Below are positions 5,501 through 30,223 of a stretch of DNA of 30,327 nucleotides, piece after piece (the first letter of the stretch is position 1; each line of letters starts with the position of its first letter). The notes below the pieces were generated by a model that worked only from the letters and a program-made list of their open reading frames with translations, was not told the DNA's origin and did not search any database. The stretch comes from an uncultured Bacteroidota bacterium (GTDB lineage Bacteria > Bacteroidota > Bacteroidia > NS11-12g > UBA955), in assembly GCA_903959115.1 (NCBI GenBank), contig CAJBVU010000206.1, positions 1-30,327 of the forward strand, written 5' to 3'. The position numbers and the translations under genes were made by a program.

Positions 5501-5572
5501 GAGCAGCGATTTTCGCTTGTTTAATAAGAAATTGAAGAGTTTTTGTAATCGAAATTTGAAGAGAAATAACGT

Positions 5573-11042: not shown

Positions 11043-14000
11043 ATGAAGAATATGATACGCAAGATTTTCACGCTGTGTATGGGCTTATTGGCCACTGGCT
11101 TGGTGACGGCGCAAACAAACTTTGCCGATTTTAAGATTACGGCGAAGGATGGCGAGAGTAAAAAGTTGAGTGGTGTGACCATTCGGATGATTTTGAACGA
11201 CATCGAAGTAGCATCGGACACAACGGATTCGGATGGTAATGCCGAATTTACCACATTGAATCCAGGAACCTACGATGTTTCGGCAACCAAAGAAGGGTTT
11301 CCTGATCAGCGATTGAATGGTATTTCATTGGGTCCAGGCTATAACAACACAGAGGAGGTCGTATTTGTGAAATCTGATGGAAAAATGACCGACGTAGTTA
11401 TCCGCGTGAAGGGCAAAAGAACCCCGGTGGATATGATGAAGAACGATGCGGTAATTGATCAAAAACAGATTTTGAATTCAGGTCGTCGTGGTACAAGCTT
11501 GTTGGTTGGTACCAACTCAGCCATAATGAGTACTCCACAGGGTATTTCTGTGCGTGGAACAAGGGCGGATGGTAACGGAACATTTATCGATGGTCAGCGT
11601 GTTATCGGTGGTGGTAGTTTGCCTACTTTAGGTACAGAACAGATCTCTGCCAATGTGGGTGGTATTCAAGCGATGTATGGTGACTTAACGGGTGGTGTAT
11701 TTAGCAGTACTTCTAAGAGTGCAACAGATAAAATTGTTACAGCGGTTGAAGCTCAGACCTCAACGGGTTTGGATGCATTTGGTCATAATTCGGTGGAAGG
11801 ATTTATTTCTGGCCCATTGATTGTGAAAGATGTGAAGGATGCTGAAACTGGAAAGAAGCGCCGAATGGTTAAGTTGGGTTATGTGTTAAATGGTAACGTG
11901 GGTTATTACAAAGATCCCAATCCAACCCGTACAGGTGTTTATGTAGTAAATGATCAAAAATTACAACAGCTAGAAAATAATCCTTTGGTATTTACCCCGA
12001 ATGGATTTGTTAGTACTGCATCCTATTTGCGCGAGTCGGACTTTGACCAATTGAAGGCAAGGCCGAATAGCCCATTATCAAATGGCAACTTTATAGGAAA
12101 ATTAGAGTGGCGACCTTCTCAGGGCGTAAGTCTTGTGGGTTATGCGAGTTATTTTTACCAGCAAAGTTTGGCTGCGAGTAACTCTGTAATGAACTTCAAG
12201 AATAATGGTAGAAGTGATAACCAGACGTTCCGTGGATATTTGTTGTTTACACAGAACTTCAAGACAAACAAAGAGAGCTCAATCAAGAACGCATATTACT
12301 CAATTCGTGCAGAATATCAGAATTCGTATTCTGAAAGTAGAGATGCGGTTCACATGGACAATATTTTCAACTATGGGTATATTGGTAAATTTAAATCCTA
12401 CCCTACAGCGGTTTTTGCATACTCAAACAATGATCCGCAGCAGAATCCTAATAGGGAGCCTAAGATTATGCGCGACCAGTTTGGGAATTATGTACAGTTG
12501 AGAAATTACTGGGAGCAAGTTGGAAATACGGATACATTGATGACCTATACTGCAGGGGATTTGAATCCGGTGAGAGCTAAATACACTCAGAGTATTTACG
12601 ACTATTACAATGAAAGAGGTTTTAACATCAACGGAATCAATACATTATTGGCAAGTCAAGGATTGGTGAACGGCATGAACCCCAATGCAGTGTATTCTCT
12701 GCACAATACACCAGGTGGTAACACTTCCGGTTGGAGTAAGTCTAGCGCAGAGCGTTATGGTTTGTTCGCGGTAGGCCAGATGAGTGTGAAAGGTAAAACT
12801 GTTGGAGGACGTGAAAGGACCCAGCATGATTTACAGGCAGGTTTTTATTATGAGCAACAAATTAACCGTGGTTACGGATTGGGTGCCAATGGTTTGTGGA
12901 TATTGATGCGTCAGTTGATGAACAAACACATCTCAGAATTGGATTTGTCTAATCCTATTTTGAGTTACGATGCTAATGGCCAGTTTACGGATACCGTTCG
13001 TTACAATCGTTTGATTAACTACGGCGATCAATCGCAGTTCGACCGTAACTTCAGGGATAAATTAATTCAAGACGGTGCTACAGATGTTTATGGTAACAAG
13101 ATTGATGAGCGCACATTTGTTGATGTTAACTCTTTTGCGCCTTCAGATTTCAAGTTAGAAATGTTCAATGCTGATGAATTGTTGAACAATGGTAATAGTT
13201 ATGTGAGTTACTTTGGATACGATTATTTAGGAAATCGTGTTGCGGGGAAGCCAAGTATCGAACAATTCTTAAACAACAAAACACAGCGCACGATTGGTGC
13301 TTTTCAGCCGGTCTATATTGCAGCTTGGTTGCAGGATCAATTTCAATTCAAAGATCTTGTTTTCCGTTTGGGCTTGCGTATGGAAAGATATGATGCCAAC
13401 CAATTGGTGTTGAAAGATCCTTACAGCTTGTATCCAATCAAAACCAAAGGTGAAGTGAAGCAAATCAATGGGTTGGATATTTTGCATCCCAATAACATCG
13501 GTGACGACTTCAAAGTATATGTAAACGATATAGACGCTCCAACGAAGATTATTGGTTACCGAAATGGCGATAAATGGTTTAATGCTGATGGTTCTGAATT
13601 ACGCAGTGCGGAATTCTTGGCCAACCAAACTAGCAACGGTCGTATCGCGCCTTATTTGGTAAACCCCAACAAACAGGAGTTAACCAAAGACGCCTTAGAA
13701 GACTTTTTACCTGCTGTGAATTTGTTGCCACGTATTTGGTTCTCTTTCCCATTGGAGCCAGGAAGGAAGTCGTTTTATGTTAGCTATGATGTGTTGGCAC
13801 AACGTCCAAACTCAGGTGCATCGTTCTTGTCGATCGATGAATTATATTTCTTAAAAAACCGTCAAGGTTCTACTATTTCTAACGGTAGCTTGAAGCCACG
13901 TATCAAAACAGATTACGAAGTGGGATACAAGCAAATCATGGGTAAGAAAAAGGATCGAGGTTTGGAAATTGCGGCATCATACAGTGAAAACAGAAAAGAT

Positions 14001-14828
14001 TTTGGTTTGTATCAGATCAGCCAAGGATATCCTGTAACCTATACTACTTACCGTAACATTGATTTCTCTACTGTCACTGGATTCCGTGGAACATACGTGA
14101 TGAATGACATTGGTGGTAAGGGTAACATGCCAGGGCCTTTCTCTTTGGTTGCAAGTTACATGATGCAGTTTGCGGATGGAACGGGATCAAACATCAACTC
14201 TCAGGCGGCTTTGATTGCCAGTAACCAACCTAACCTTAGAAACGTAATTCCATTGGGTGAATTGGATATTCGTCATAACGTAAAGTTCAGTGCAACTTGG
14301 GCTTGGGGCGGTGGTATCAACCCAATTACCAAGAAGAACATGTACACCGGACCTCGTTGGAAAGGCAAAGAGATCTTCAAATATGCAAGTTTTAACATCA
14401 TCTCTAACTCGTACAGTGGTACTCCGTACACGCCAACGATTTTCCCAGTTCAGATTGGTGCGGTAGATCGTTCTAGGATCAAGGGTGTTCCATTTGGTGC
14501 GAGATTGCCATGGAATCAAACGTTTGATATCAACATTACCAAGGGATTGCGCTTCAATAGAGAGGATAAAGTTCAACCTTTGCTTATGAATGTATTCTTT
14601 ATCATTACGAACGTGTTAAATGCATACAACGTTGTTTCGGTTTATCCTTACACTGGTCAGCCGTTGGATGATGGATTTATCAATTCACCTCAAGGTCAAT
14701 TGTTGGCCAAAAACCAGATTGATGCACAGAGTTATGTTGATCTATATAAAATTTTGTTAAACTCCCAGACGGGTAACTTGGGTGCACCAAGAACTATCAA
14801 AGTGGGTTTGCGTATTAATTTCAATTAA
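11043..14828 (+). CDS. TonB-dependent-receptor-like outer-membrane protein with N-terminal carboxypeptidase-regulatory-like domain and very large loops
   Basis: Signal peptide; Ig/transthyretin-like N-domain (TTDSDGNAEFTTLNPGTYDV); TonB-box-like MTDVVIRV; plug motifs ISVRGTRADG.TFIDG and GGIQAMYGDLTGGV; barrel strands (AWLQDQFQFKDLVFRLGLRMERYD, YEVGYKQ); C-terminal PRTIKVGLRINFN outer-membrane signature. Confidence 0.85.
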   Translation: MKNMIRKIFTLCMGLLATGLVTAQTNFADFKITAKDGESKKLSGVTIRMILNDIEVASDTTDSDGNAEFTTLNPGTYDVSATKEGFPDQRLNGISLGPGYNNTEEVVFVKSDGKMTDVVIRVKGKRTPVDMMKNDAVIDQKQILNSGRRGTSLLVGTNSAIMSTPQGISVRGTRADGNGTFIDGQRVIGGGSLPTLGTEQISANVGGIQAMYGDLTGGVFSSTSKSATDKIVTAVEAQTSTGLDAFGHNSVEGFISGPLIVKDVKDAETGKKRRMVKLGYVLNGNVGYYKDPNPTRTGVYVVNDQKLQQLENNPLVFTPNGFVSTASYLRESDFDQLKARPNSPLSNGNFIGKLEWRPSQGVSLVGYASYFYQQSLAASNSVMNFKNNGRSDNQTFRGYLLFTQNFKTNKESSIKNAYYSIRAEYQNSYSESRDAVHMDNIFNYGYIGKFKSYPTAVFAYSNNDPQQNPNREPKIMRDQFGNYVQLRNYWEQVGNTDTLMTYTAGDLNPVRAKYTQSIYDYYNERGFNINGINTLLASQGLVNGMNPNAVYSLHNTPGGNTSGWSKSSAERYGLFAVGQMSVKGKTVGGRERTQHDLQAGFYYEQQINRGYGLGANGLWILMRQLMNKHISELDLSNPILSYDANGQFTDTVRYNRLINYGDQSQFDRNFRDKLIQDGATDVYGNKIDERTFVDVNSFAPSDFKLEMFNADELLNNGNSYVSYFGYDYLGNRVAGKPSIEQFLNNKTQRTIGAFQPVYIAAWLQDQFQFKDLVFRLGLRMERYDANQLVLKDPYSLYPIKTKGEVKQINGLDILHPNNIGDDFKVYVNDIDAPTKIIGYRNGDKWFNADGSELRSAEFLANQTSNGRIAPYLVNPNKQELTKDALEDFLPAVNLLPRIWFSFPLEPGRKSFYVSYDVLAQRPNSGASFLSIDELYFLKNRQGSTISNGSLKPRIKTDYEVGYKQIMGKKKDRGLEIAASYSENRKDFGLYQISQGYPVTYTTYRNIDFSTVTGFRGTYVMNDIGGKGNMPGPFSLVASYMMQFADGTGSNINSQAALIASNQPNLRNVIPLGELDIRHNVKFSATWAWGGGINPITKKNMYTGPRWKGKEIFKYASFNIISNSYSGTPYTPTIFPVQIGAVDRSRIKGVPFGARLPWNQTFDINITKGLRFNREDKVQPLLMNVFFIITNVLNAYNVVSVYPYTGQPLDDGFINSPQGQLLAKNQIDAQSYVDLYKILLNSQTGNLGAPRTIKVGLRINFN

Positions 14829-14847
14829 TCTTTAAAGAATTTACAGT

Positions 14848-17800
14848 ATGAAACGATTAGGTTTAATTTTGTTCAGTGCGATGTTGGCTCAAATGTCGAT
14901 CGCACGTCCCATTCTTAACTTGAATGGCAGGTCCAATAGCCCAAGGGTTGATCGCAGGGCGGGTCAGTTTGCCAATACTTGCGAACCCGCTTCTCAAAGT
15001 GTGGATTTGGATGTAAACAACGTACGTACCAAATTGTTAAATGGTGGCGATATGTGGTGGGATTTGAACAACGCAAAATATGAAATTCCGAAGGTAACAG
15101 ATCCAAACTCAGTGCGTAAACATTCATTGTTCGCGGGTGCCATTTGGATTGGCGGTCGTGATAATGGTGGAAGTTTGAAATTGGCCGCGATGACTTATCG
15201 TCAGAAAGGTTCAGATTTCTGGCCAGGTCCATTGGATACTACCACTGCTGCCACTGATCCAGTGCGTTGTAAGACTTACGATAAAATGTGGAAGGTGACT
15301 CGCGATGAGTTGGAAGAGTTTGAAAATAGCAAATATTTGACCCAAAGTGCGGGTATTCGTGATTGGCCAGCTGGAAGACAACGTGCGGTATTGTATGGTA
15401 ACGAGGCGAATTATTTGGCGCCTTACAAGGAAATTACCCCAGACGGAGTTTACGATCCTTTTGTTGGAGAGCACCCCGTGTTAGATGATCGCAGACCTTC
15501 TATTGAAAATGGAGTTGACAAGCAGCCTGATATGTTTATTTGGTGGGTTTACAATGATAAGGGTAACATTCACTCTGAAACACAGGGTCAAGCAATTGGT
15601 GTAGAAGTTCAGACAACCGCGTTTGCATTTAGTACGAACGACGAGGTGAATAATATGACATTTTACGGTTCTAAGATTATTAACCGTGGATTTACAACAT
15701 TGAACAATTGTTACATGGGTCAGTGGGTAGATGCCGATTTGGGTAACTACGCAGATGACTATGTTGGTTGTGATGTGGGACGCGGATTGGGATTCTGTTA
15801 CAATGGTGACGATGATGATGAAGGTGTATTGGGATATGGTTTGAATCCTCCTACCATTGGTGTTGATTACTTTGAAGGTCCAACAGATTCTGCAGGTAAC
15901 CAAATGGGGTTGAGTCACTATATGTATTACAACAACGACTCAGATCCGGTACGTGGAAATCCAGGTGAAGCGATTGAGTATTATAATTTGTTGCAAGGAA
16001 AATGGTTGGGCGGTCAGAATGTAACGTATGGCGGAACAGGATTTGGTGGTTCAAAGCCAGCCAAGTATATGTTCCCTGGTGATACTGATCCTGCCTATCC
16101 AACAGATCCATGGACTGAGAAAATTTCAGGAAATAAGCCTGGTGATAGACGTTTTATTCAATCAACGGGTCCATTTACTTTGCGTCCTGGTCAAACCCAA
16201 CGTATTACAGTGGGTGTTGTTTGGGCTCGTACTACTAGCGGTGGTGCAAGTGGTTCTTTGAATTTGTTGAAATTGGCATCAGACAAAGCACAAACGTTGT
16301 TTAACAACAACTTTAAGATTTTGGATGGACCAAATGCTCCAGATATTGAAATTCAAGAGCTTGAGCAGGAATTGGTAATGAAGTTTTTGAATACCAATTC
16401 TGGTAAAATCGAAAACTACGTTGAGAAATATAGAGATGCTAGCAACAAGCTTCGCACTTATAAGTTTGAAGGATATTTGGTTTATCAGTTAAAAGACGGA
16501 ACTGTTAGTACCAGCGATTTGGATAACGTTGATAAGGCTCGTTTGTTGTTTCAGTGTGATTTGAAAAACAACCGCGGTATGATTGTAAACAAAGTATACG
16601 ATCCAAAATTGGCCGCTTTGTTACCTGTGATTAAGGTTGAAGGTGCGGATGCAGGTGTTCAACATACTTGGAGTATCAAAAACGATCTTTTTGCGACAAG
16701 TGCAAATACCCAATTGGTTGATTTTAAGCCAGTGTATTATTTAGTGATGTCCTATGCCATCTTGGCTGATGATTCTTTGCAGATTGATCCAAATCAATTC
16801 CTAGCGGGTCGTCGTAATATCAAAACATATAAAGTGGTTCCTCACAAAACGGAGCCTGAGAATTTTGGTACTGAATTGACTTCAGGTTACGGTAGTGGTC
16901 CAGTATTAACTCGTTTGGCGGGTCGTGGAAACGGCGGTAACGTTTTGGAATTCACTCCAGAGACAATGAACGATATCTTGGCAAATAATATTTCTAGCAA
17001 GCCTACCTATGTTGGTGGATTTGGTCCTGTTAAGATTAAAGTGGTTGATCCGTTGAAGGTGCCGAATGCCAAATTCGAATTTGTATTAAAGGAGAATAAA
17101 GCAAGTTTGGCTTCTGGATTGAAAGATTCAATGACCAAGAATACTGGCTGGTTCATGGTGAAAAAGGGAGCTGATGGCGTTTCCAATGATACGATATTCT
17201 CCGATACAACAATTAGATCGAAGTTTGAATCAGTGCAAGGTAAGCGTAGTGTAAACAATGCCACCAAAGAGACTTTGGCTGATTGGGGATTGAGTGTAGA
17301 AGTTGAACAGGTTTATAATCCAGGCGAAAATGCTCAGGCTGATCCATCCAATGGTGTATTGAGTTGGAGTGTGGAGTGGGAAGACAATGGAAAGCAATGG
17401 TTAACTGCAGTTGCCGACAATGATGGTACTGCTGCGGGAAATTTCCCTTGGCAGAACTGGATTCGTGCGGGTCAGGCAGGTCGTGGTGCTACGTTTGATC
17501 CAATTGCACATGACTTCTTTAACCAAGACGGCACCCCTTGCGATCCAGGTCAGGCTTTTGAGAGAATTTGGAACGGTAGAATTGCGCCTTATGGGTTAAC
17601 AGGTCGTGAAAAGTTGACTGCAGCTGGTAAAAATACTTATGGTTTTGCGTGGTGGGGTAATACAGTTGGTTTGCAAAATCCAATGGCGGAATTGGCAAGT
17701 ATAGAATTGGTAATCACTAAGGATAAGAGTTTGTGGACGCGTTGCCCGGTATTTGAGATGGCGGACGACGAGATGAAGGCTTCTACCGAAGGTCAGATGT

Positions 17801-18732
17801 CCAAGTTTAACATGCGTTGGGGTACTTCAAAAGATAAAGACGGAAACGATATTTCTGGTTCTCAAGGTTTGGGTTGGTTCCCTGGCTATGCGGTGAATAT
17901 GGAAACGGGCGAACGATTGGTTATTGCATTCTCTGAGGATAGTTATTTGGCTGGTGAAAACGGCCGTGATATGATGTGGAATCCTACAGATAAGGTTATC
18001 AACGACAATGGCAGTTATCCTGCAATGGGTGGTAAACACTTCATTTATATCTTCGGTACGGGTATGTCGGCTATTTCGCGTAACGTAAAAGGTGAGAGAT
18101 ATTTAGGTGATGCTGAAGCCAATTTCCAACGTTTCAAAACAGCAATGTTGCCCACGGCTGTGGGAGGTTCTGTTTCGAGCACGGAGAAAATGAGATTGTT
18201 ATCTCAGGCAATGTGGGTGATTCCAACATATATGGCCGCTGGTTTCAAGATGGAAAATGGCAATGTTCCTCCAACAAATGTGAAGATCAAGATTAACATT
18301 CGCAAGGCATATACTACATACAATGGTGGTAATGCAATCAACAACGATCGTCCGATGTATGAATTTGATGCTGCAAGTATCGCACCTAAGGTGAGCAATG
18401 AAATCGGGAAGAAGAATTTGGACTTGGTTAATGTTGTTCCGAATCCTTATCGCGGATATAGTTCCTATGAAAACTCTCCAATTGATTCTCGTGTTAAAAT
18501 TACCAATTTGCCTCCAGATTGTACAATTACAATTTATGATATGGCGGGTAATTTGGTTCGCAGAGTTAACAAAGCGGATGTGAATACTTACTATGAGTGG
18601 GATTTGAAAAACGGAAGTAATGTGCCTATTGCCAGTGGTTTATACTTGATCCATGTTAAGACTAAGGATTTGGGTGAAAAGATAATTCGTTGGTACGGTA
18701 TTATGCATGCCATTGATTTGGACAGTTATTAA
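14848..18732 (+). CDS. 1294-aa secreted protein of unknown function with a T9SS type-A-like C-terminal domain
   Basis: SPI-type signal peptide with no lipobox. N-domain LDVNNVRTKLLNGGDMWWD..HSLFAGAIWIGG..DFWPGP; GDRRFIQSTGPFTL.PG; Fn3-like YKFEGYLVY; CTD VVPNPY..ITNLPPDCTITIYDMAGNLV..WDLKN..IASGLYLIHV. Confidence 0.8.
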   Translation: MKRLGLILFSAMLAQMSIARPILNLNGRSNSPRVDRRAGQFANTCEPASQSVDLDVNNVRTKLLNGGDMWWDLNNAKYEIPKVTDPNSVRKHSLFAGAIWIGGRDNGGSLKLAAMTYRQKGSDFWPGPLDTTTAATDPVRCKTYDKMWKVTRDELEEFENSKYLTQSAGIRDWPAGRQRAVLYGNEANYLAPYKEITPDGVYDPFVGEHPVLDDRRPSIENGVDKQPDMFIWWVYNDKGNIHSETQGQAIGVEVQTTAFAFSTNDEVNNMTFYGSKIINRGFTTLNNCYMGQWVDADLGNYADDYVGCDVGRGLGFCYNGDDDDEGVLGYGLNPPTIGVDYFEGPTDSAGNQMGLSHYMYYNNDSDPVRGNPGEAIEYYNLLQGKWLGGQNVTYGGTGFGGSKPAKYMFPGDTDPAYPTDPWTEKISGNKPGDRRFIQSTGPFTLRPGQTQRITVGVVWARTTSGGASGSLNLLKLASDKAQTLFNNNFKILDGPNAPDIEIQELEQELVMKFLNTNSGKIENYVEKYRDASNKLRTYKFEGYLVYQLKDGTVSTSDLDNVDKARLLFQCDLKNNRGMIVNKVYDPKLAALLPVIKVEGADAGVQHTWSIKNDLFATSANTQLVDFKPVYYLVMSYAILADDSLQIDPNQFLAGRRNIKTYKVVPHKTEPENFGTELTSGYGSGPVLTRLAGRGNGGNVLEFTPETMNDILANNISSKPTYVGGFGPVKIKVVDPLKVPNAKFEFVLKENKASLASGLKDSMTKNTGWFMVKKGADGVSNDTIFSDTTIRSKFESVQGKRSVNNATKETLADWGLSVEVEQVYNPGENAQADPSNGVLSWSVEWEDNGKQWLTAVADNDGTAAGNFPWQNWIRAGQAGRGATFDPIAHDFFNQDGTPCDPGQAFERIWNGRIAPYGLTGREKLTAAGKNTYGFAWWGNTVGLQNPMAELASIELVITKDKSLWTRCPVFEMADDEMKASTEGQMSKFNMRWGTSKDKDGNDISGSQGLGWFPGYAVNMETGERLVIAFSEDSYLAGENGRDMMWNPTDKVINDNGSYPAMGGKHFIYIFGTGMSAISRNVKGERYLGDAEANFQRFKTAMLPTAVGGSVSSTEKMRLLSQAMWVIPTYMAAGFKMENGNVPPTNVKIKINIRKAYTTYNGGNAINNDRPMYEFDAASIAPKVSNEIGKKNLDLVNVVPNPYRGYSSYENSPIDSRVKITNLPPDCTITIYDMAGNLVRRVNKADVNTYYEWDLKNGSNVPIASGLYLIHVKTKDLGEKIIRWYGIMHAIDLDSY

Positions 18733-18740
18733 AAAATAGA

Positions 18741-19856
18741 ATGATGAATCGCAAACAAAAGAATATACTTTGGGCCAGTTTGATGGCTGTTGGATTTGTA
18801 GGAACTGCTTTTGGTGGTAATCCTGAACGTCAGGGACAGGCAGGTGCTGCTCAGTTGACCATCAATGGTTGGGCGAGATCCAGTGGTATGGGTTGGGCGA
18901 ATGGCGGTAAGGTATCGGGTGCAGAAGCCATGTACATGAACGTAGGTGGTTTGGACCGTTTTAAGAATAACACCGAATTGGTATTTGCTCGTACAGAATG
19001 GTTGATGGGTTCAGGGATTGCCATTAATAGTGTTGCTTTGGCTCAGAAAATGGGTGAAGATGGCGAAGGAGGTACTTTTGGTATATCTGTAATGCAGTAT
19101 AGCATTAAACCCATTGATATCACTACAGAGGATAACCCTTATGGCGGTATTGGTACTTTTAGAGTTAATATGTCGAATATTGGCTTAGCATATTCTAAGA
19201 GCTTCAGTAACAACATCTCTGCAGGTGTTATGGCAAAGATCGTTTCGGAGGGGATTCCTGATGCAAGCGCTTCTGGTGTTGCTTTGGATGCAGGTGTTCA
19301 ATACGTAACCACATTCCGTCCTACCAAGGGTGGTATGAAGAAGGATGATTTCAAGTTTGGTATTTCGATGAAGAACATCGGACCCGACATGAATCATACG
19401 GGTGATGGATTGAGTTACAAGGCGATTTTGGATAATGGTACGTTTACCAAAACTGTTCAGGTGAAGGTGGATCAGATCAAATTGCCAGCCTTGTTGAACA
19501 TTGCTGCTTCTTATGATATCCGTTTGGATAAGAACGCAAATCAATACGATAATAAGTTAACTGTAGGGTTCGGATTTACGAATTATGCGTATACTGCGAA
19601 CCAGTTGACGTTGGCTTGTGAGTATTCATATAAGGAATTCTTGACATTGCGCGGTGGATTTGTTTATCAGCAGGGGATTTTTGACAGCGAAGTACGTCCT
19701 TCCGCCTTTACGGGTCCACAAGCAGGTATTAGTTATGATTTTGCGGTAGGTGAAGACGGCAATCAAGTTAGTTTAGATTACTCATACAGGGCAACAAATC
19801 CTTTTAATGGTGTGCATTCATTTGGTTTGCGCATTGGCTTAGGAACTGCCGAATAA
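18741..19856 (+). CDS. PorV/PorQ-family (FadL-like) outer-membrane beta-barrel, probable PorV paralog
   Basis: Signal peptide. N-terminal hatch-like segment AGAAQLTINGWARSSGMG..AEAMYMNVGGL resembles PorV (FL.I.P.AR..GMG....NPA). Amphipathic strands follow (GLAYSK, LDAGVQY, LTLRGGF, LDYSY, HSFGLRI). Confidence 0.8.
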   Translation: MMNRKQKNILWASLMAVGFVGTAFGGNPERQGQAGAAQLTINGWARSSGMGWANGGKVSGAEAMYMNVGGLDRFKNNTELVFARTEWLMGSGIAINSVALAQKMGEDGEGGTFGISVMQYSIKPIDITTEDNPYGGIGTFRVNMSNIGLAYSKSFSNNISAGVMAKIVSEGIPDASASGVALDAGVQYVTTFRPTKGGMKKDDFKFGISMKNIGPDMNHTGDGLSYKAILDNGTFTKTVQVKVDQIKLPALLNIAASYDIRLDKNANQYDNKLTVGFGFTNYAYTANQLTLACEYSYKEFLTLRGGFVYQQGIFDSEVRPSAFTGPQAGISYDFAVGEDGNQVSLDYSYRATNPFNGVHSFGLRIGLGTAE

Positions 19857-22743: not shown

Positions 22744-22800
22744 ACGGTCAGACAACCAATGGGGGGTTATAATCTTCTTTAGGTGAAATCTGGATCATGT

Positions 22801-22809: not shown

Positions 22810-23346
22810 ATGACACATCAACAGGAGCCAAAAGAACATCAATTGTTGCGACAGTGTATCGCGGGAGACCGCAAGGCACAGCAAGGGTTGTACGATCTTT
22901 TTGCCCCCACTGTGTATGCCATTTGCTTGCGATACATGGGTAATTCAGACGATGCCAAAGATATGTTACAAGACACCATGGTAAAGTTTTATCAAAAAGC
23001 GGGAGAGTTCAGATTCCAAGGATCCTTGGAGGGCTGGGTGAAACGCATCGGTGTAAATGCATGTTTGGATCAGTTGAAGAGAAATAAAGCCAAATTTACT
23101 ACGGATATTGAAAATGCTTTTGGATTAAGCGGCGATGTAAATGCTTCTCAACCACTAGAAACTAAGGATTTGATGCGATTGCTCGGCACACTCCCTGATG
23201 GGTATCGCACTGTTTTTAACTTATACGCCATTGAGGGATTCTCTCATGGTGAGATTGCCACACTGTTGAATATTTCTGAGAATACAAGTAAGTCACAACT
23301 ATTTAAAGCCCGCAAATGGTTGCAAGCAAAACTCGATAGGAATTGA
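22810..23346 (+). CDS. ECF (sigma-70 group 4) RNA polymerase sigma factor
   Basis: 178 aa with regions 2 and 4 only: DRKAQQGLY..YAICLRY..AKDMLQD, GWVKRIGVN..LD and LPDGYRTVFNLYAIEGFSHGEIA.LL.ISENTSKSQLFKAR. Confidence 0.95.
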   Translation: MTHQQEPKEHQLLRQCIAGDRKAQQGLYDLFAPTVYAICLRYMGNSDDAKDMLQDTMVKFYQKAGEFRFQGSLEGWVKRIGVNACLDQLKRNKAKFTTDIENAFGLSGDVNASQPLETKDLMRLLGTLPDGYRTVFNLYAIEGFSHGEIATLLNISENTSKSQLFKARKWLQAKLDRN

Positions 23347-24653
23347 TGGATGATTCATTGAAACATATCGATGAGCTATTTCGTTCCCATTTGGGTTCGG
23401 CGGGTGTGACGCCTCCTACAGGGGTGTTTGAGCAGTGTGTTGAGCAATTGCATGCTTCAGGAACGGAAGGACAAGGATTGAATCAGGGTGCTATTCAGCA
23501 AAGTGTTGAATCAGGACTGGAAAATGCCACGGCAAGTGCAGGAAAAACAATATTTGGTATTTCGATGAAGGCCAGCGTTGCAATACTTGGCTCAGTGGTT
23601 GCTGCCGTCTTTGTGGTATCGGCTATCTTGAACAGCAACGGATCTGTCAACCATTTGAAAGATGTGAATGCTGGGATACGGTCAGAGGTCGACAAGAATT
23701 TGGATCAGACAGCCGCGGGAATTGATAATAATTCGGATAAGGGTGCTGGTTTGTCGGCGAAGACCAACGCTGAAATTGGTAATAGTTCTTCTGATGTAAA
23801 TGCAAGGACGACTTCTCTGGATAAAATAGATTACGTGGCCACTTATGGGGGGTCGATTCCAGTGCTTCGTAAGAATTATGTTGGAGGGAAAAATAATGTT
23901 GGAGTGGAAAATTCCGGGGGCGGGAATGGTGGATCGGGCATAGAAAATTCATCGAATGTGCCCCGGGAAAAATCATCGAGTGAAATGTTAGTTAAAGTGC
24001 CGACAGACAATTCAAATCAATTGAGCCGACCTACAAAAGTGGTAGCTGGGAATATAAACCCATGTCAAAAGTATGCAAATCAGTGGAAGCCTGTTATCGC
24101 CGATATTGTTGGTGGGATTGTTTCATTGGGTATTGAGGGTAAATATGAAAAAATGCGGGTTGATTGGGCTGATGGTGAGCGTTCAGAAGTGTTAACTGAC
24201 CAAGTGGGTGTTGAGCGAGTTTCGCATCAATATTGGGTAGCAAATAACAGAACGTTTAATGTAAAGATGTTGAACGAGCGCAGGGTTTTCGATGAGAAAG
24301 GTATGTGGATTGTTTGCAGGGACAGTCAGAGAGTTGCGGTTAGTATCGCGCCCGTGGGTGATGCTACAGATATTTTTGTCCCTGATATTTTTACACCCAA
24401 TGGGGATGGATTTAATGAAGAATTTTACATTAGGATGGCCCAGCCTCAAATGTTCGATATTTGTGTCTTTGATGTGAACAATCGTTTGATATTCAGATCA
24501 GAGAACTACGATGCAAGATGGAAGGGTATTTGTGGCGCAAGTGTTTGTCCAGAAGGTGTTTATAGGTTGGTTGTTTCGTATAAGTATAGTGGTGATAAAT
24601 CGTTAAAGTATGCAAGAAAATCCGTGAAGTTAATTTATAAAGCAAACCAATAA
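23346..24653 (+). CDS. Putative anti-sigma factor: cytoplasmic N-domain, single TM, Ser/Asn/Gly-rich linker, PKD-like domain and T9SS type-B CTD
   Basis: TGATG overlap with the sigma gene. N-terminus IDELFRSHL....TPPTGVFE resembles Bacteroidota anti-sigma N-domains. Hydrophobic helix at 23577-23630; no cleavable N-terminal signal peptide. C-terminus FVPDIFTPNGDGFNEEF..FD.NNRLIF..RWKG..PEGVY is CHU_C-like. Confidence 0.72.
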   Translation: MDDSLKHIDELFRSHLGSAGVTPPTGVFEQCVEQLHASGTEGQGLNQGAIQQSVESGLENATASAGKTIFGISMKASVAILGSVVAAVFVVSAILNSNGSVNHLKDVNAGIRSEVDKNLDQTAAGIDNNSDKGAGLSAKTNAEIGNSSSDVNARTTSLDKIDYVATYGGSIPVLRKNYVGGKNNVGVENSGGGNGGSGIENSSNVPREKSSSEMLVKVPTDNSNQLSRPTKVVAGNINPCQKYANQWKPVIADIVGGIVSLGIEGKYEKMRVDWADGERSEVLTDQVGVERVSHQYWVANNRTFNVKMLNERRVFDEKGMWIVCRDSQRVAVSIAPVGDATDIFVPDIFTPNGDGFNEEFYIRMAQPQMFDICVFDVNNRLIFRSENYDARWKGICGASVCPEGVYRLVVSYKYSGDKSLKYARKSVKLIYKANQ

Positions 24654-24719
24654 TTTTAAAAATCGAATATGAATTTTACTCATAATAGTACACGGCGCCC
24701 AAATAATTCGGGCAACTCC

Positions 24720-24750
24720 TTGGGAAATTGGACCAAATTTTCTATTTTTG
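24720..24750 (+). promoter_or_regulatory. Housekeeping promoter of the giant PKD gene (TTG-N20-TATTTTTG)
   Basis: Exact -7 box at 24743-24750, with TTG at 24720-24722 and a 20-nt spacer. It lies inside the ORF track's N-terminal extension, which implies a later start. Confidence 0.6.
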
Positions 24751-24779
24751 AGCGATTACACAAAGCAAACTCACCTAAA

Positions 24780-27700
24780 ATGAAAGGTTTTATTACAATA
24801 ATGAAAAGTGCACTGCTAACTTTAGTAGCTGCATTTGCAATGATTGGCGACACTGCGGCGCAGTGTACCATCCAGTACAGCGGATCACCTTGCGTAGGAA
24901 CTCCTGTAAGTTTCTATGGAGCGTCTTCAGGTACAACCCACGACTGGGATTTCAACGGAGAAGGATCGCAAACAGGATTGAAAAACTTGAATTTTTCCTT
25001 CAAAACTGCGGGAAATAAGACGGTAACTTACATCACTACAATCAACGGTACCAAGTGTACGTCTACGTTGAATTTGGTCGTAAGGACAGCGCCAACAATT
25101 AAGTTGAAATTGCAAAACTTGTACGAACAGTGTTTTGAAAAGAACTTGTTCTGTTTCACGGATAGTTCATTCAACAAGAATGGTTCTAAAATAGATAAGA
25201 TTCGTTACTTGGTTAGTGATGGTCAATTGTTTGAATACACCAAGCCAACTATGCCTCAGACTTTTTGTTTTTCTGTGAAGGACGAGCGTGGTGGAAGTTT
25301 CGACATTTTTGTGGAGGTAACCGATGAGTGGGGTTGTGTAGATACCATGAAATTGGTAGGTGCCGTTAAAGTCCGTGAAAAGATTGGAGCTCGTTTTACA
25401 AGTAATAAGCCAGTAGCTTGTGATAGTGTAACGGCAACCATTCAAAATATTTCACGTATCGATAAGAGTCAAGTGAAGAAAATCATTTGGTATTGGGGTG
25501 ATGGATCTACCACTACGGATTGGGGACCAACGATTAAAAAGACATTTTACGGACAAGGAACATATAATTCCAAAGTTGTGATTGAAACGCTAGATGGCTG
25601 TAAAGACTCTTTCACGGTTACCGCAGCCGCCTCAGTATTTAAGTCGAGGGCTAAAATTTGGGCTAGTAGGGATTCAGTCTGTGTTTCTGATCCAAAAATT
25701 GATTTTGGTGTAGACCAAATTCCTTCGGGAGCTACCGGTTTGTTGTGGAACTTTGGTGACCCAAATACTGGGCCTCAGAATTTTGACAACAAGAGCTGGA
25801 CTACAAGTCACTCTTTCTCTGGCCTTGGACCTTTCTTGATCAATTTGACTTATTCTCACCCCATTTGTGGTAATAAATCGGCATATGATACCATTATTGT
25901 ATTGGGTCCGGCTTCAACCATTGAAGTATCGGGAAATCGTTTGGCAGAATTTGAGGTATTCCAATGTCCAAAGGATGTAATGGATACGGTTCACTTTAAG
26001 AACTTCTCAACTTTCTATCATAATGATCGCGATTTTACAGACGATGATAGTACATTCTACAAATGGAATGGAACTTTAGGTCACACATTTCAAAAGAATG
26101 CCAACGGTACTCCAAGACAAGTTTGGCAAAAACCTCTGCGAAATGATACAAACTCAAATGGTACTAAGAGTGTTTATGCAGGTGGAACAATTGCACCGGC
26201 CGGTGGAAATGATTATTTAAAGCGTGAGCGTGTTTGTGCTGTTAGACTTTGGGATTTCAGTGATACATATGCACCAAAGTGTACTACGGATGTAACCAGG
26301 AATAAAAACGTTTTTGTAAACTGTCAGTACTCTCGCGATACATTGCCAACGCACTATTACAAATCATGGGATTTGATTTTGTTGGAAAGGTTTAAGACAT
26401 CGCCAATGGAAGATGCGATTTTCATTACAAAAACCGGTGTATGTAAAAAGATTCAGGTTTGGGCATCGGATACTTTGTGGGTTGTGTTGGATACTATTGT
26501 GTTTGTTCCTAAGACCAGCGCAGATTCGGCGACAGCGGCATCAACCAAATACAAGAATTCTATCAAGAAGTATGCACCTTACTATAAAATGAAGGGAATT
26601 GGTGAGCGATTGGTAGAGGATTCCGTTACGATTACTTTGGGTTCAAAAGATTCCGTATATATTAATAAGACATTACATGTTGGTCCAAAGACAGTGTTGG
26701 CAAAGGATAAGGACATTATCCGATTGACAAGCAAGACGGATTCAATTGTTTATAATTTCTATACATATACTCGTAGGGATACGTTGCCTTTGCCCCTGCT
26801 TAAGATTCGATTAGCGAAGGGCGAAAAGCCTACACAATTAAAGATGTTGTTGATGTCGAAGATGGGCCGTTTCAATGGCTTGAATTATGGCACTGATTAC
26901 ATCATTGATTACAAGCGATACCGTGAATTATATTATGCTAGGATTCCTCAGTGTAATAACGTGAAGTTAAACCATAAGGATACTTGTCACCCAATGAAGT
27001 GTGAAAGCGAAGCAACCAAGACTTTGGCGATGCTTCATGCCAATGCGGGTGGTGTTGGATCTGGTTTGTTGAAAGATGCGATTGAATGTTTGGGTGCTAA
27101 GAACCCACAATATGGTATCACCTTTATCTTGAGTGATTTAAAGCCAGGATGTACTTTCTCGATGGTTGAAATCAACTTTGATTCAACTTGTAATCCAAAT
27201 GGTTGGGTTGCTTTGAGTGGTTTGAGTGGTGGTAACCGACCTCCAGGGCCTCCATTCCCAGGATATCAACCTGCGGGTAACCCACCAAACAGATATTCTA
27301 AGCAATATTCTGCGTCTCAAGTGTGCGATCCGAGTGGCTGTATTACGGTTGGTATTATTGTAGGTAATGGTGTTCGCAAGCCGGGTACTTTTTCTCCCCC
27401 AACCAAGGATCGTCCAATCTGTACTGATACTCAGTGGTATAGGCAGTTTGCATGTTTCCCGATGATTGATCCTGCATTTGAGGTGATTATTCCAAAGCCA
27501 AATTCCGTAGGTATTCGTAAGATTTGTAAGGGAGATCCAGTGATCGTTCGTCCGATACCTGGCAACAAGACCAAAACAGATGATCTTAAATCACTTCGTT
27601 GGTCTTTTGAAACCGGTAATGCGAGTCCATCATACTCAAAAGGATGGCGCCGTTATGTCCAAGAAGATTATTTCAGATATCAAAAGGTACCTGGAAAAAA

Positions 27701-30161
27701 CCCAGCTCGTTTGTATAACTATGTGGTTCAAACACGTGGTGGTGAAGATCCCGTGCAGGTTCCATGTACAGATATTTGGAATGATGGAAATACTAAAATC
27801 ACAAAGAGAGATACCATCTTCACTGCTGAAATTCGTGCTTGGTCAGTAGGTGCAGACGTATCAGCTGTTTGGGACAGAATGAAAGAGCGTTTGGACGCCC
27901 GTGGATTTGATCCATTCTCTTTGTCACCCGCACAAATTGCCCAAATGATTTGGAATAACAAAGGCGTTATTGGTCAGCCAGCGACGGGTGCTTATGGTTG
28001 TATTGATACCACTGGTTTTGGTAGATTCATTCGCTACTATTTCATTCCGAATAAAGACAGTACGACGATTTTGCATTATCGCGATACAACAATTCGTCCT
28101 ACTGACATTAATAAAGTAAGTGGTGTAGATTATCCATCATATCGTTTCATTCCTAAATGGGTTGGATATCATTTGGTGAGTGTATCGATGACTTCATCCA
28201 ACGGAAAGTGTGATGACATTGCTGCATTCCCAGTATTGGTTGGTTTTGCAATGGAGTTGGAATTGCCAGATAGTATTATCTGTCAAGATCAGGCAACGAG
28301 CTTGAAGGCTTTGCCTAAGTATAAAATGTTCCACCCAGACCCAATTAACTTTGGAACATGGGATTTCACAGACTATTGGAGAGATCCAACACGTCAGGCT
28401 GAAACAGCACAGGGTAAGCCAAACCGCGAGCCTTTCACCAAGTGGGATTGGAACAAAGCAGATGACGATGCAACTAAGCCAATTACAATCTTTGGCGGAC
28501 AGCCTTGGGGTGGTACTGGTGTAGGTTCAACTGTGTCTCCTTGGGTTGATTTAGGAGGCGGTGGATCCGTTGCTAAGTATTACAAAGATGATTCAGGGGT
28601 ATATGTCTTTAGAAACATCGCAGGTGATAGCACTGGTTGTATGGATACAATTACTCGTAAATTATTCATTACTCGTTTGGATGTTAGGTTTAATCTGAAT
28701 GTAACTGTTCCTTCTTGTAACTCTACAATTGAATTCTTTGATAGTTCAATTATGCATGACCCATGTAGTTGGGCGATGAAGAATTGTAATGGTCCAACAC
28801 CAATGCAGTGTGACTATATCAAAGAGTGGTTTATTGATTGGGGTGATTCATCGAATAACTTGTTCAAGAGAGCTGCTTCTAATCAATCAGGTTTGCCTGA
28901 CCGTATTGGACACAAATACACCCGTAACGGATGGTTTAAAATTCAATATCGTTTGAAGACTGACCAAGGTTGTGAGGATACGTTTAGTCGTTGGATTTTG
29001 ATTCCTGGTCCACGTCCTAAATTTGAATTCACAACAAAAGCTGGAAATGAAATTACTATTTGTGAAGGTGATAGTTTGCAGTTTACCAATTTGACAGATA
29101 CGGCGTCTAGCAAATCTGATTGGACATGGTTCTGGGGTGATGGTAAGATAGATAACAAGAAAGATCAGTTCTTGTGGCATACATATAAGAAACCTGGTAA
29201 ATATTGGGTATTCTTGGAGCAGTATGACTCTTTGATATTGCCTCCTAACATCCGCAAGTTCTGTCCAGCTACATTCCCTGATACCCCATCGCAAAAGGCA
29301 TTTATCGTAACGGTATTGCCGCGTGATTCTGTCCGAGGTTTGGTGCTCAAAATGGCTATTTGTGCGGGTGATAGTAACTATTTTACCGATAATTCAGATA
29401 CAATTTTGAAATCGTATAAGTGGAGATTCGAGAATTTGAGTACAGGTCAGGTTGATACGATTACAACAGATAAGAAAAAGATGGCATGGAGATTTACCAC
29501 GCCAGGTCAGATTAGGGTATCGCACTTCGCAGACTACAATCCTAGTCATCCAAGGCCATGGTGTCCTACTGTAATGGGTGATATTATTTTCCTTGTAGAT
29601 TCTGTTGTTTCGAACTTCACAATTGACTCGTCTAAGACGCCGGATTATACCTATACACGAACAGATGTCAATGGAACACAATGGCGTTGGGGTTACAATC
29701 ACCAGAGCAACATCAAATTGACCAAAGAGCCATTGATTGTTGATTATGCTGGAAGTGATAAAATTGTAAGTGCATCTTACAGTGGTACTGATACTTTCTG
29801 GATTTGTTTAGAAGTAACCAATTCAACTGGATGTAAGGATACCATTTGTAAGCCAGTCTATGTGAACCAATTCATTTTGTTGGCCAACGTATTCACACCA
29901 GGAAATGGTGATGGAAAGAACGATGAATTCCGTGTTCCAATTGCAGGTCAGTCGTTATTTGAATTGCGCATCTACAACCGATATGGTGAGCGCGTATTTG
30001 AATCTTCAGATCCAGGATTTAAGTGGAATGGTAAGGTGAACAATGACGGTGCTGAAGTTCCATCTGGAACTTACTTCTACCAGTTGACATATCAATTCAA
30101 AGGAAAAGATAAGATTAACAAGGTGAATGGTTCGGTGAACGTAATTCGCAAAGCCCCTTAA
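24780..30161 (+). CDS. Giant (~1790 aa) Cys-rich PKD-repeat surface protein with T9SS type-B (gliding-motility-associated) CTD
   Basis: Signal peptide (MKGFITI)MKSALLTLVAAFAMIGDTAA-Q, with start at 24780 or 24801. PKD-type motifs WYWGDG, LWNFGD, IDWGDS, WFWGDG and GC.DT. CTD ANVFTPGNGDGKNDEF..IYNRYGERVF..WNG..VPSGTYFY. Confidence 0.88.
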   Translation: MKGFITIMKSALLTLVAAFAMIGDTAAQCTIQYSGSPCVGTPVSFYGASSGTTHDWDFNGEGSQTGLKNLNFSFKTAGNKTVTYITTINGTKCTSTLNLVVRTAPTIKLKLQNLYEQCFEKNLFCFTDSSFNKNGSKIDKIRYLVSDGQLFEYTKPTMPQTFCFSVKDERGGSFDIFVEVTDEWGCVDTMKLVGAVKVREKIGARFTSNKPVACDSVTATIQNISRIDKSQVKKIIWYWGDGSTTTDWGPTIKKTFYGQGTYNSKVVIETLDGCKDSFTVTAAASVFKSRAKIWASRDSVCVSDPKIDFGVDQIPSGATGLLWNFGDPNTGPQNFDNKSWTTSHSFSGLGPFLINLTYSHPICGNKSAYDTIIVLGPASTIEVSGNRLAEFEVFQCPKDVMDTVHFKNFSTFYHNDRDFTDDDSTFYKWNGTLGHTFQKNANGTPRQVWQKPLRNDTNSNGTKSVYAGGTIAPAGGNDYLKRERVCAVRLWDFSDTYAPKCTTDVTRNKNVFVNCQYSRDTLPTHYYKSWDLILLERFKTSPMEDAIFITKTGVCKKIQVWASDTLWVVLDTIVFVPKTSADSATAASTKYKNSIKKYAPYYKMKGIGERLVEDSVTITLGSKDSVYINKTLHVGPKTVLAKDKDIIRLTSKTDSIVYNFYTYTRRDTLPLPLLKIRLAKGEKPTQLKMLLMSKMGRFNGLNYGTDYIIDYKRYRELYYARIPQCNNVKLNHKDTCHPMKCESEATKTLAMLHANAGGVGSGLLKDAIECLGAKNPQYGITFILSDLKPGCTFSMVEINFDSTCNPNGWVALSGLSGGNRPPGPPFPGYQPAGNPPNRYSKQYSASQVCDPSGCITVGIIVGNGVRKPGTFSPPTKDRPICTDTQWYRQFACFPMIDPAFEVIIPKPNSVGIRKICKGDPVIVRPIPGNKTKTDDLKSLRWSFETGNASPSYSKGWRRYVQEDYFRYQKVPGKNPARLYNYVVQTRGGEDPVQVPCTDIWNDGNTKITKRDTIFTAEIRAWSVGADVSAVWDRMKERLDARGFDPFSLSPAQIAQMIWNNKGVIGQPATGAYGCIDTTGFGRFIRYYFIPNKDSTTILHYRDTTIRPTDINKVSGVDYPSYRFIPKWVGYHLVSVSMTSSNGKCDDIAAFPVLVGFAMELELPDSIICQDQATSLKALPKYKMFHPDPINFGTWDFTDYWRDPTRQAETAQGKPNREPFTKWDWNKADDDATKPITIFGGQPWGGTGVGSTVSPWVDLGGGGSVAKYYKDDSGVYVFRNIAGDSTGCMDTITRKLFITRLDVRFNLNVTVPSCNSTIEFFDSSIMHDPCSWAMKNCNGPTPMQCDYIKEWFIDWGDSSNNLFKRAASNQSGLPDRIGHKYTRNGWFKIQYRLKTDQGCEDTFSRWILIPGPRPKFEFTTKAGNEITICEGDSLQFTNLTDTASSKSDWTWFWGDGKIDNKKDQFLWHTYKKPGKYWVFLEQYDSLILPPNIRKFCPATFPDTPSQKAFIVTVLPRDSVRGLVLKMAICAGDSNYFTDNSDTILKSYKWRFENLSTGQVDTITTDKKKMAWRFTTPGQIRVSHFADYNPSHPRPWCPTVMGDIIFLVDSVVSNFTIDSSKTPDYTYTRTDVNGTQWRWGYNHQSNIKLTKEPLIVDYAGSDKIVSASYSGTDTFWICLEVTNSTGCKDTICKPVYVNQFILLANVFTPGNGDGKNDEFRVPIAGQSLFELRIYNRYGERVFESSDPGFKWNGKVNNDGAEVPSGTYFYQLTYQFKGKDKINKVNGSVNVIRKAP

Positions 30162-30184
30162 TTTTTAAATCTAGAATAAAGCTG

Positions 30185-30223
30185 AGAAAGCCCCGCAGGT
30201 TCTGCGGGGCTTTCTTTATTTTT
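30185..30223 (+). terminator. Intrinsic terminator after the giant PKD gene
   Basis: Perfect 14-bp inverted repeat AGAAAGCCCCGCAG-gtt-CTGCGGGGCTTTCT followed by TTATTTTT. Confidence 0.9.

Follow-up and report, generated by a model that had tools for sequence, protein, structure and literature searches.

The locus described here raises the question of why the gene behind an extracytoplasmic function (ECF) sigma factor should encode a membrane protein that ends in a type IX secretion system (T9SS) sorting signal. The locus is located in a stretch of 30,327 nucleotides (hereafter the window), which is one whole contig (C206) of a metagenome-assembled genome (MAG) of an uncultured member of the Bacteroidota. 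The MAG, labelled G000 as the genome carrying the cassette under study, comprises 2.23 Mb in 357 contigs and is 91.6% complete. Three genes on the + strand make up the cassette. The first encodes an ECF (group 4) sigma factor of 178 aa (22810..23346), the second an anti-sigma-type single-pass membrane protein of 435 aa whose C-terminal domain (CTD) is of the T9SS type-B kind (23346..24653), and the third a giant type-B T9SS cargo protein (24780..30161). We estimate at about three in four the probability that the second protein, referred to below as the partner, is a true anti-sigma factor and is linked by a functional CTD to the T9SS or to the outer membrane. The conservation of the cassette suggests that gene control is wired here to the secretion machine.

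The ECF sigma factor that an earlier note, prepared by a model from the sequence alone, had placed at position 22810 is borne out by the domain searches. The protein matches the Pfam families Sigma70_r2 (E 2e-15) and Sigma70_r4_2 (E 1e-16), and its score with the NCBIfam model TIGR02937 (78.5 bits) exceeds the cut-off of 42.9. It consists of regions 2 and 4 only and falls within the size range of about 170–200 aa that defines the ECF (group 4) sigma factors. Its nearest solved relatives are SigW, RpoE and CnrH. The overlap TGATG between the sigma stop codon and the partner start codon, reported in the same note, is present: the TGA at 23344–23346 and the ATG at 23346 share the A. An alternative start of the partner, TTG, is found at 23343.

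The partner shows a clear division into parts. Across 30 full-length relatives (31–99% identity), an invariant N-terminal motif is followed by a variable linker and by 190 highly conserved C-terminal residues. The sole Pfam match of the 435-aa protein is CHU_C (PF13585; aa 344–415, E 1.1e-11, 45.1 bits against a cut-off of 27). The match begins at nucleotide 24375, exactly where a type-B CTD had been proposed (24375..24650). CHU_C was matched in all 16 close and all 21 distant members of the partner family, and the AlphaFold2 (AF2) model contains beta strands in this region. The partner ends in a genuine type-B CTD, on which purifying selection is strong.

The opposite end of the partner, aa 1–37 (23346..23456), is predicted to be a cytoplasmic sigma-binding motif of two helices (HIDELF..PP.GVFE.C..QL). 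The residues H7, I8, D9, L11, F12, P24, G26, F28, C31 and Q34 are invariant. In each comparison with an orthologue, 6–14 of its 31 codons carry nothing but synonymous changes, a pattern from which it can be concluded that the motif is translated and under purifying selection. AF2, supplied with 16 relatives, places helices at aa 2–16 and 27–37. The earlier note had suggested modelling the sigma factor together with this N-terminal domain. The complex prediction with partner residues 1–77 reached an ipSAE of 0.81 in three of three runs, the best control reaching 0.01; this score expresses the model's own confidence and is no measurement. In the calibration of the method, 51 of 78 solved complexes and 2 of 108 mismatched pairs attained this mark. 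In the predicted interface, partner residues 5–35 face sigma residues 21–62 (region 2) and 117–175 (region 4), and the contact surface coincides with the conserved motif. The N-terminal domain has no sequence match among solved chains even at E ≤ 10, and it is therefore unlikely that the score reflects memory of a homologous anti-sigma factor. The model thus supports the assignment of the two proteins as a true sigma/anti-sigma pair with a predicted mode of binding, and the anti-sigma-like character claimed earlier for the N-terminus is backed by both the motif and the predicted contact with regions 2 and 4.

The arrangement of the two genes is widely conserved. Strict orthologues of the cassette were found in 13 species-level genomes, all of them freshwater Flavobacteriales MAGs, with the order sigma gene, partner gene and gene for the 1830-aa cargo in all cases. 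The synteny greA-HIT-lgt-holB is kept in the same genomes as well, and they therefore provide no independent evidence. All orthologues that were found, even those at only 31% identity, show the arrangement. A homologue of the sigma factor (E ≤ 1e-20) is present in 266 of 301 Bacteroidia genomes (300 others and this one), a tally that includes two unpublished genomes, G180 and G094, with no locus-level claim resting on either. The best sigma loci of other genomes that have a downstream gene number 28, and at 20 of these nearest loci in other Bacteroidia genomes (11 families) a CTD-tagged partner is encoded downstream. The partners at the 20 loci are 281–492 aa long and display the N-motif ..[DE]LF[KR]..L.....P..VW..I, an internal helix and a C-terminal CTD. 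The gap between the sigma and partner open reading frames (ORFs) ranges from -45 to +18 nt across the 28 loci. When the 20 loci were extended to 15 kb, a gene for a CTD cargo of 614–2111 aa was found directly downstream in 15 of them, with several ORF gaps of only 4–30 nt. The flanking genes differ among the extended loci, which shows that the cassette is kept independently of the surrounding synteny. Judged by this recurrence, the sigma/partner arrangement is not a matter of chance.

The search for ECF-adjacent proteins combining a membrane helix with CHU_C, which the earlier note had proposed, thus succeeded at these loci, and it succeeded also in protein databases. A profile of 21 partner proteins was compared with 1.84 billion representative proteins clustered at 50% identity. 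The best 150 matches contain at least 51 end-to-end matches of 281–492 aa, all with an internal helix and a terminal CTD, and the strict N-motif pattern is present in 47 of those 51. Since the representatives are clustered at 50% identity, the 51 matches stand for a large family. The scans of genome collections returned mostly MAGs. The only cultured match with a full pair is Crocinitomix catalasitica ATCC 23190 (NZ_JHXV01000015.1:5057-11178, L216), in which a gene for a 187-aa sigma factor is directly followed by one for a 379-aa partner with the N-motif and the CTD. The small and widespread pair, the recognisable promoter described below, which could be used as a reporter, and this cultured type strain as a possible host make the idea testable. 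The CTD-bearing anti-sigma factor is widespread, uncharacterised and experimentally tractable.

The recurrence of the pair also bears on the objection that the product of the second gene is simply a surface protein, secreted or anchored in the membrane, which happens to be encoded behind a sigma gene and whose N-terminus does not bind sigma. The absence of a Pfam anti-sigma domain (ASD) from the partner would agree with such a view, as would the fact that the binding to sigma is a prediction and that, in blind trials, the complex test was also passed by 7 of 44 pairs of neighbouring genes. Against it stand the recurrence of the pairing at 20 of the 28 loci in 11 families and in varied contexts, the overlap or near-overlap of start and stop codons, and the coincidence of the predicted interface with the N-motif. 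This motif is moreover the most conserved feature common to the CTD-type partners and to the partners of related sigma factors that end in an outer-membrane barrel. We consider the absence of any regulatory link very improbable.

The hydrophobic stretch of the partner is internal and comprises aa 76–95 (23571..23630), with a hydropathy peak at 77–95 and an AF2 helix at 83–94. It corresponds to the single transmembrane segment given earlier as aa 78–95 and is slightly longer. An internal membrane helix is present within aa 49–108 in all 21 diverse members of the family, its first residue being located 49–90 residues from the N-terminus. The 15 residues in front of it contain no D or E in 20 of the 21 members, and the 15 residues behind it contain one to four. 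This charge bias fits a signal-anchor with its N-terminus inside the cell. A different reading would be that translation starts at Met74 (MKASVAIL...VSA|IL) and that the segment is a cleaved signal peptide of a normal secreted type-B cargo. In this genome, residues 74–93 indeed resemble a classical Sec signal with a VSA motif. The motif is not conserved, however, and the 40 upstream codons are conserved as protein with many synonymous changes. The helix lies 49–108 residues from the start in 21 of 21 diverse members. Met74 itself is shared by no more than 2 of 16 relatives, the position being occupied in the rest by A, S, L, T, W or further residues, and for this reason the signal-peptide reading is rejected; it is the least probable of all that were considered. 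The claim that the partner has no cleavable signal peptide therefore holds, the hydrophobic segment being internal and located behind a conserved, translated cytoplasmic motif.

The region between the helix and the CTD is long in all members. In the 21 diverse proteins the distance amounts to 126–318 residues, 65–80% of which are polar or small; in the partner itself (aa 96–343, up to the start of the CTD) the proportion is 65%. The predicted local distance difference test (pLDDT) score of the AF2 model is below 50 over aa 35–236, and aa 96–236 (23631..24053) are the poorly conserved part of the alignment. This stretch of about 140 aa is likely to be a disordered, S/N/G-rich periplasmic tether and corresponds to the linker of about 150 aa noticed before. 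By standard polymer dimensions its contour length would exceed the width of the periplasm. Behind the tether AF2 predicts a beta-sandwich at aa 247–334 (24084..24347; pLDDT 70–84), for which Foldseek returned only the generic tandem Ig/FnIII fold. A PKD-like domain had been claimed for this region, and the claim can be kept in part. No Pfam PKD model matches the partner or 16 close relatives, even at E ≤ 1. Six of the 21 members of the wider family match Pfam PKD or PKD_4, and the WADGE...SHQY segment of the partner aligns with the canonical W.FGDG...H.Y columns of these distant members. The region is an Ig-like domain and probably a degenerate PKD domain.

The promoter of the sigma operon is conserved together with the genes. 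A candidate ECF-type promoter (ACAACC, 16 nt, CTTCTT) is located at 22752..22779 and ends about 30 nt 5′ of the sigma ATG. The block tCAGACAACC-N16-C(T/A/G)TCTT is found about 30 nt 5′ of the sigma start in 18 of 18 orthologous loci, with a variable spacer. Of 19 distant loci, 17 have a GCAAC(C/T)-N16-C(A/G)TC site at the equivalent position. Among the 15 extended (15-kb) loci with a cargo gene, 13 contain the site, and in 8 of the 15 it is the sole + strand match. Autoregulatory promoters of ECF sigma factors combine a -35 element containing AAC with a -10 element resembling CGT. The typically ECF-like appearance of the promoter suggests that the sigma operon is autoregulated. In Flavobacterium psychrophilum, the ECF-type promoter motif SM6 (CGT box) has been described 5′ of gldN, porU and a PG0189 homologue, and it also precedes one ECF sigma/anti-sigma pair, THC0290_1774/1773 (PMC9723704). 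Elsewhere in G000, near-perfect GGCAACT-N16-CGTCT promoters occur about 50 nt upstream of two genes on the contigs C101 (gene 433-1572, - strand) and C106 (gene 8-574, - strand). These encode paralogous secreted proteins of 380 aa and 189 aa, the latter cut by the contig end. The two genes may be under the control of one of the four related ECF sigma factors in G000.

The third gene of the cassette was annotated as an ORF at 24669–30161 (1830 aa), the product of which matches CHU_C (64 bits), PKD_4 and PKD in Pfam. The first 37 codons from ATG 24669 overlap a conserved promoter-like block (24669–24779), and the conserved ATG at 24780 yields a signal peptide ending in ..TAA|QC. The most likely start, on this comparison, is ATG 24780, which gives a protein of about 1790 aa. 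Public gene calls of the cargo orthologues disagree about the start in the same way (L004 and L005). Within the 126-nt gap between the anti-sigma and cargo genes, the element TTGG-N19-TATTTTTG (24720..24750) is kept in 18 orthologous loci with variable flanks. It fits the consensus TAnnTTTG of Bacteroidota housekeeping promoters (PMC9723704) and is regarded as a candidate promoter (-33/-7 type) of the cargo gene. At 15 distant loci, the interval that separates the anti-sigma gene from the cargo gene contains no ECF-type site, so that sigma-dependent expression of the cargo would need read-through. Such read-through is plausible where the ORF gaps are only 4–30 nt. No comparable terminator was detected between the sigma, anti-sigma and cargo genes. 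The first one, a strong intrinsic terminator with a 15-bp stem followed by a T run (30184..30216, + strand), is located 3′ of the cargo gene. Contigs from freshwater metatranscriptomes bridge the holB/sigma, sigma/anti-sigma and anti-sigma/cargo junctions; contigs of this kind cannot prove single transcripts or locate their starts.

The genome contains the machinery to which a type-B CTD could be directed. It encodes SprA (2193 bits), GldN (131.6 bits) beside a PorP gene, four PorP/SprF matches in all (on the contigs C316, C188, C319 and C29), about 20 ORFs with CHU_C and a single M50 site-2 protease. Just one of the 11 ECF pairs of the genome, the pair studied here, carries a CTD. In a tree of CTDs, those of the anti-sigma factors group apart from the others, in three clades, and none is placed as sister to the CTD of the neighbouring cargo. 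This separation marks them as an old and specialised set and not as recent copies. Mimicry of the neighbouring cargo by the anti-sigma CTD was considered and rejected on account of this separate clustering. A conserved Cys residue before the G.Y motif was likewise rejected as a mark of anti-sigma CTDs: it occurs in 10 of 21 of these, in 6 of 16 from the neighbouring cargo and in 5 of 16 of the remaining CTDs in the genome.

We favour, tentatively and at somewhat less than even odds, a mechanism in which the anti-sigma factor serves as a consumable pseudo-substrate of the T9SS. In the cytoplasm, residues 1 to about 35–40 would clamp sigma regions 2 and 4, and the uncleaved signal-anchor (aa 76–95) would keep the protein in the inner membrane. 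The disordered tether of about 140 aa would carry the Ig-like domain and the type-B CTD across the periplasm. A functioning T9SS that had spare capacity, consisting of the SprA translocon and a PorP-type partner, might then take the CTD as cargo, and the inner-membrane anchor would prevent the export from being completed. The stretched tether would be cut, the site-2 protease (M50) would remove the membrane stub and the sigma factor would be freed. It would transcribe its own operon from the GCAAC-type promoter and, by reading through, the giant adhesin gene. As soon as real cargo occupied the machine, less anti-sigma factor would be consumed and sigma would be held again. A loop in which competition by cargo restores repression would be homeostatic. 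If sigma were instead switched on by a jam, the result would be positive feedback on a blocked system.

Several observations weigh against this mechanism or against parts of it, in addition to the purely predicted nature of the complex score. The match of the partner to TIGR04131 (27.8 bits, E 2e-6) stays below the curated cut-off of 35. A PorP/SprF gene adjoins the cassette at none of 39 loci; at one locus (L140) such a gene lies 8 kb off, beside another cargo gene. Type-B cargo genes often, though not always, adjoin a dedicated PorP/SprF-like gene, and the same search found PorP/SprF directly downstream at no fewer than 11 of 64 ordinary type-B cargo loci. Both the anti-sigma factor and the cargo would consequently have to rely on a PorP-type protein from another locus, perhaps the core one. 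The CTD of the anti-sigma factor is no close copy of that of its neighbour, and competition for one specific partner is thus not indicated. Five of the 20 extended distant loci have no adjoining cargo gene. Matches to ACAACC-N15-17-CDTCTT number 6, 7 and 0 in G000, G186 and G219, which is not above the reversed-pattern control; across these three genomes of the same family the promoter of the sigma gene itself is the only shared match. Looser promoter scans of G000 gave no convincing site near T9SS genes. In this lineage a putative sigma-A-type promoter is conserved in front of the cargo gene itself, which is consequently not a simple sigma-dependent target. In four freshwater metatranscriptomes the 3′ two-thirds of the cargo gene (26220–30054) are covered 5–10 times deeper than the two genes of the sigma/anti-sigma pair. 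Coverage of the initial 1.2 kb of the cargo gene is poor in the same data; this unevenness could result from strain divergence, internal starts or RNA processing. The depth is weak evidence because it is summed over strains and carry-over of DNA is possible. It fits a cargo gene with a stronger promoter of its own, and promoter and depth together imply that sigma control of the cargo may be minor. Finally, PorA of Porphyromonas gingivalis that was tethered to the inner membrane still signalled although it was not exported (PMC12152298), which shows that the surface need not be reached by a tethered CTD. The earlier note had named the downstream cargo as the obvious competitor or target of the anti-sigma factor. 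The linkage of the two genes extends well beyond the lineage; the separate clades of their CTDs and the promoter of the cargo gene weaken the idea.

Two further features of the window lie upstream of the cassette. A gene for a tail-specific protease (5573–7666, + strand; Peptidase_S41 with TSP_NTD, PDZ and DUF3340) is located 15 kb upstream. Proteases of the Prc type cleave some cell-surface-signalling anti-sigma factors in Pseudomonas. Three co-directional genes occupy positions 11043–19856 (+ strand), and this block is kept beside greA in relatives (L004–L007). Their products are a protein of 1261 aa with CarboxypepD_reg, a protein of 1294 aa with a weak FlgD_ig-like C-terminus and a protein of 371 aa without a Pfam match.

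No description of an anti-sigma factor bearing a T9SS CTD was found in the published literature, in agreement with the earlier note, which knew of no characterised example. The individual elements of the system can nevertheless be compared with known ones. The CTD itself is of the kind known from type-B cargo such as SprB with SprF and PG1035 with PorP and PorE (PMC9143113). It shares with them the CHU_C/TIGR04131-type domain with PN.FTPNGDG.ND, and the genome encodes SprA, GldN and PorP/SprF. Unlike these cargo proteins, the partner has neither a cleavable N-terminal signal peptide nor an adjoining PorP/SprF gene. The regulatory half resembles RseA with RpoE and RsiW with SigW. Common features are translational coupling and co-transcription, a predicted single membrane pass with the N-terminus inside and a probably autoregulated promoter, and the M50 site-2 protease is present in the genome. 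In contrast to RseA and RsiW, the sigma-binding region is shorter (about 35 aa in two helices) with no detectable ASD or ZAS (zinc-binding anti-sigma) domain, and the periplasmic part is a secretion signal and not a sensor domain.

A T9SS CTD that acts as a signalling element feeding an ECF sigma factor is known from P. gingivalis, where the CTD of PorA binds PorY and activates PorXY-SigP (PMC12152298, PMC7712824). PorA differs from the partner in that it is a free cargo with a signal peptide, is bound to A-LPS (anionic lipopolysaccharide; type-A behaviour) and acts through a two-component relay from PorY and PorX to SigP. In the cassette the CTD is of type B and is part of the anti-sigma factor itself. 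By the example of PorA, the CTD of the partner might escape handling by the translocon and bind a periplasmic or inner-membrane protein, or the CTDs of unexported cargo might compete for this contact, and the system would sense a build-up of cargo. That the PorA CTD activates PorXY-SigP even when held in the inner membrane would agree with this. On the other side, no PorX/PorY-type genes were found in the neighbourhoods of the cassette, a genome-wide search not having been made. The tethers are never shorter than about 126 residues, which is beyond the need of an inner-membrane contact, and the A-LPS-bound PorA and the type-B CTD belong to different types. We therefore hold a ligand role of this kind to be improbable.

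The closest parallel in layout is offered by the Dma (dual-membrane) anti-sigma factors, which have been described for Bacteroides; Dma1 is processed and spans both membranes (PMC10927553, PMC13088901). The sigma factors cognate to Dma proteins are of the ECF21 group. In both cases a Bacteroidota-specific ECF sigma factor stands beside an anti-sigma factor with a short sigma-binding N-terminus, one helix and a long disordered tether. The barrel-type and CTD-type partners share the same kind of N-motif, and their sigma factors fall in one clade of the sigma tree, the branching of which is poorly resolved, also as to whether the CTD-type pairs arose once. The two differ at the far end: Dma ends in an eight-stranded outer-membrane barrel (OMP_b-brl_2), whereas the partner has no match to this barrel and ends in the Ig-like domain and the type-B CTD. 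They also differ in what is controlled, the Dma regulon being vesiculation and the conserved neighbour in the cassette being a giant T9SS cargo gene. Three of the nearest homologues of the sigma factor have partners with the same N-motif, helix and tether and with a barrel-like C-terminus, the chains ending in F. A possible paralogue of the Dma type may exist in the same genome. The contig C109 encodes a second sigma factor with 39% identity (5278-5814) and a 486-aa partner (C109:3812-5272; L010:816-2273, - strand) in which a similar N-motif and a membrane helix are joined by a long linker of low complexity and a barrel-like C-terminus ending in ..VVRKF. This partner has no Pfam match, unannotated homologues and an AF2 model with a pLDDT of 28.7, and for these reasons its assignment is kept weak.

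These parallels lead to a competing view of the cassette, in which the partner would be a Dma-type anti-sigma factor with its barrel in trans. The CTD would moor the end of the tether to an outer-membrane protein of the PorP/SprF type. Such a static tether would report damage to the outer membrane or surface, or vesiculation, and not the flux of secretion, and sigma would be freed upon loss of the mooring or perturbation of the envelope. The common clade of the sigma factors with CTD-type and barrel-type partners (L106 and L119 among the latter), the identical layout of Dma1 (PMC10927553) and the pair on C109 with its ..RKF end argue for this view, as does the finding that type-B CTDs bind PorP-like barrels and remain bound to them (PMC9143113). 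The barrel matches themselves lie just under the Pfam cut-off (25.8 bits for L106 and 25.5 bits for L119), the model of the C109 partner is poor and the sigma tree is poorly resolved. Moreover, a type-B CTD normally passes SprA to the surface. An anchored chain would have to stay threaded through the channel, which a fused barrel need not do. We consider a static tether unlikely, although it is the main rival of the pseudo-substrate mechanism and more probable than a PorA-like ligand.

The mechanism that we favour, the consumption of the anti-sigma factor as a pseudo-substrate, has its nearest logical counterpart in FlgM. FlgM is a soluble anti-sigma28 factor that is exported as an intact protein by the type III apparatus of the flagellum, and the working machine thereby relieves the inhibition. 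As in the flagellar system, the anti-sigma factor of the cassette bears the export signal of the machine. The likeness is one of logic only, an analogy without homology, since the anti-sigma factor is anchored in the membrane and the machine is the T9SS. Carried to its end, the analogy describes a T9SS checkpoint: the motor would pull on the sorting signal of the anchored anti-sigma factor, the tether would be cut, the ECF sigma factor would be released and the transcription of giant adhesin operons would be matched to free secretion capacity in numerous families of Bacteroidia. In this complete form the checkpoint is possible and rather doubtful. The shared clade, the N-motif and the tether imply that the CTD version is best seen as a variant of Dma in which a docking tag has replaced the barrel. 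If the link is true, the secretion signal is carried by the transcriptional inhibitor itself, and this would be the most direct connection between a secretion machine and a sigma factor yet seen in the phylum. It would also widen the recently described idea of Dma, a single polypeptide connecting cytoplasm and outer membrane, in that a docking tag would take the place of the fused barrel.

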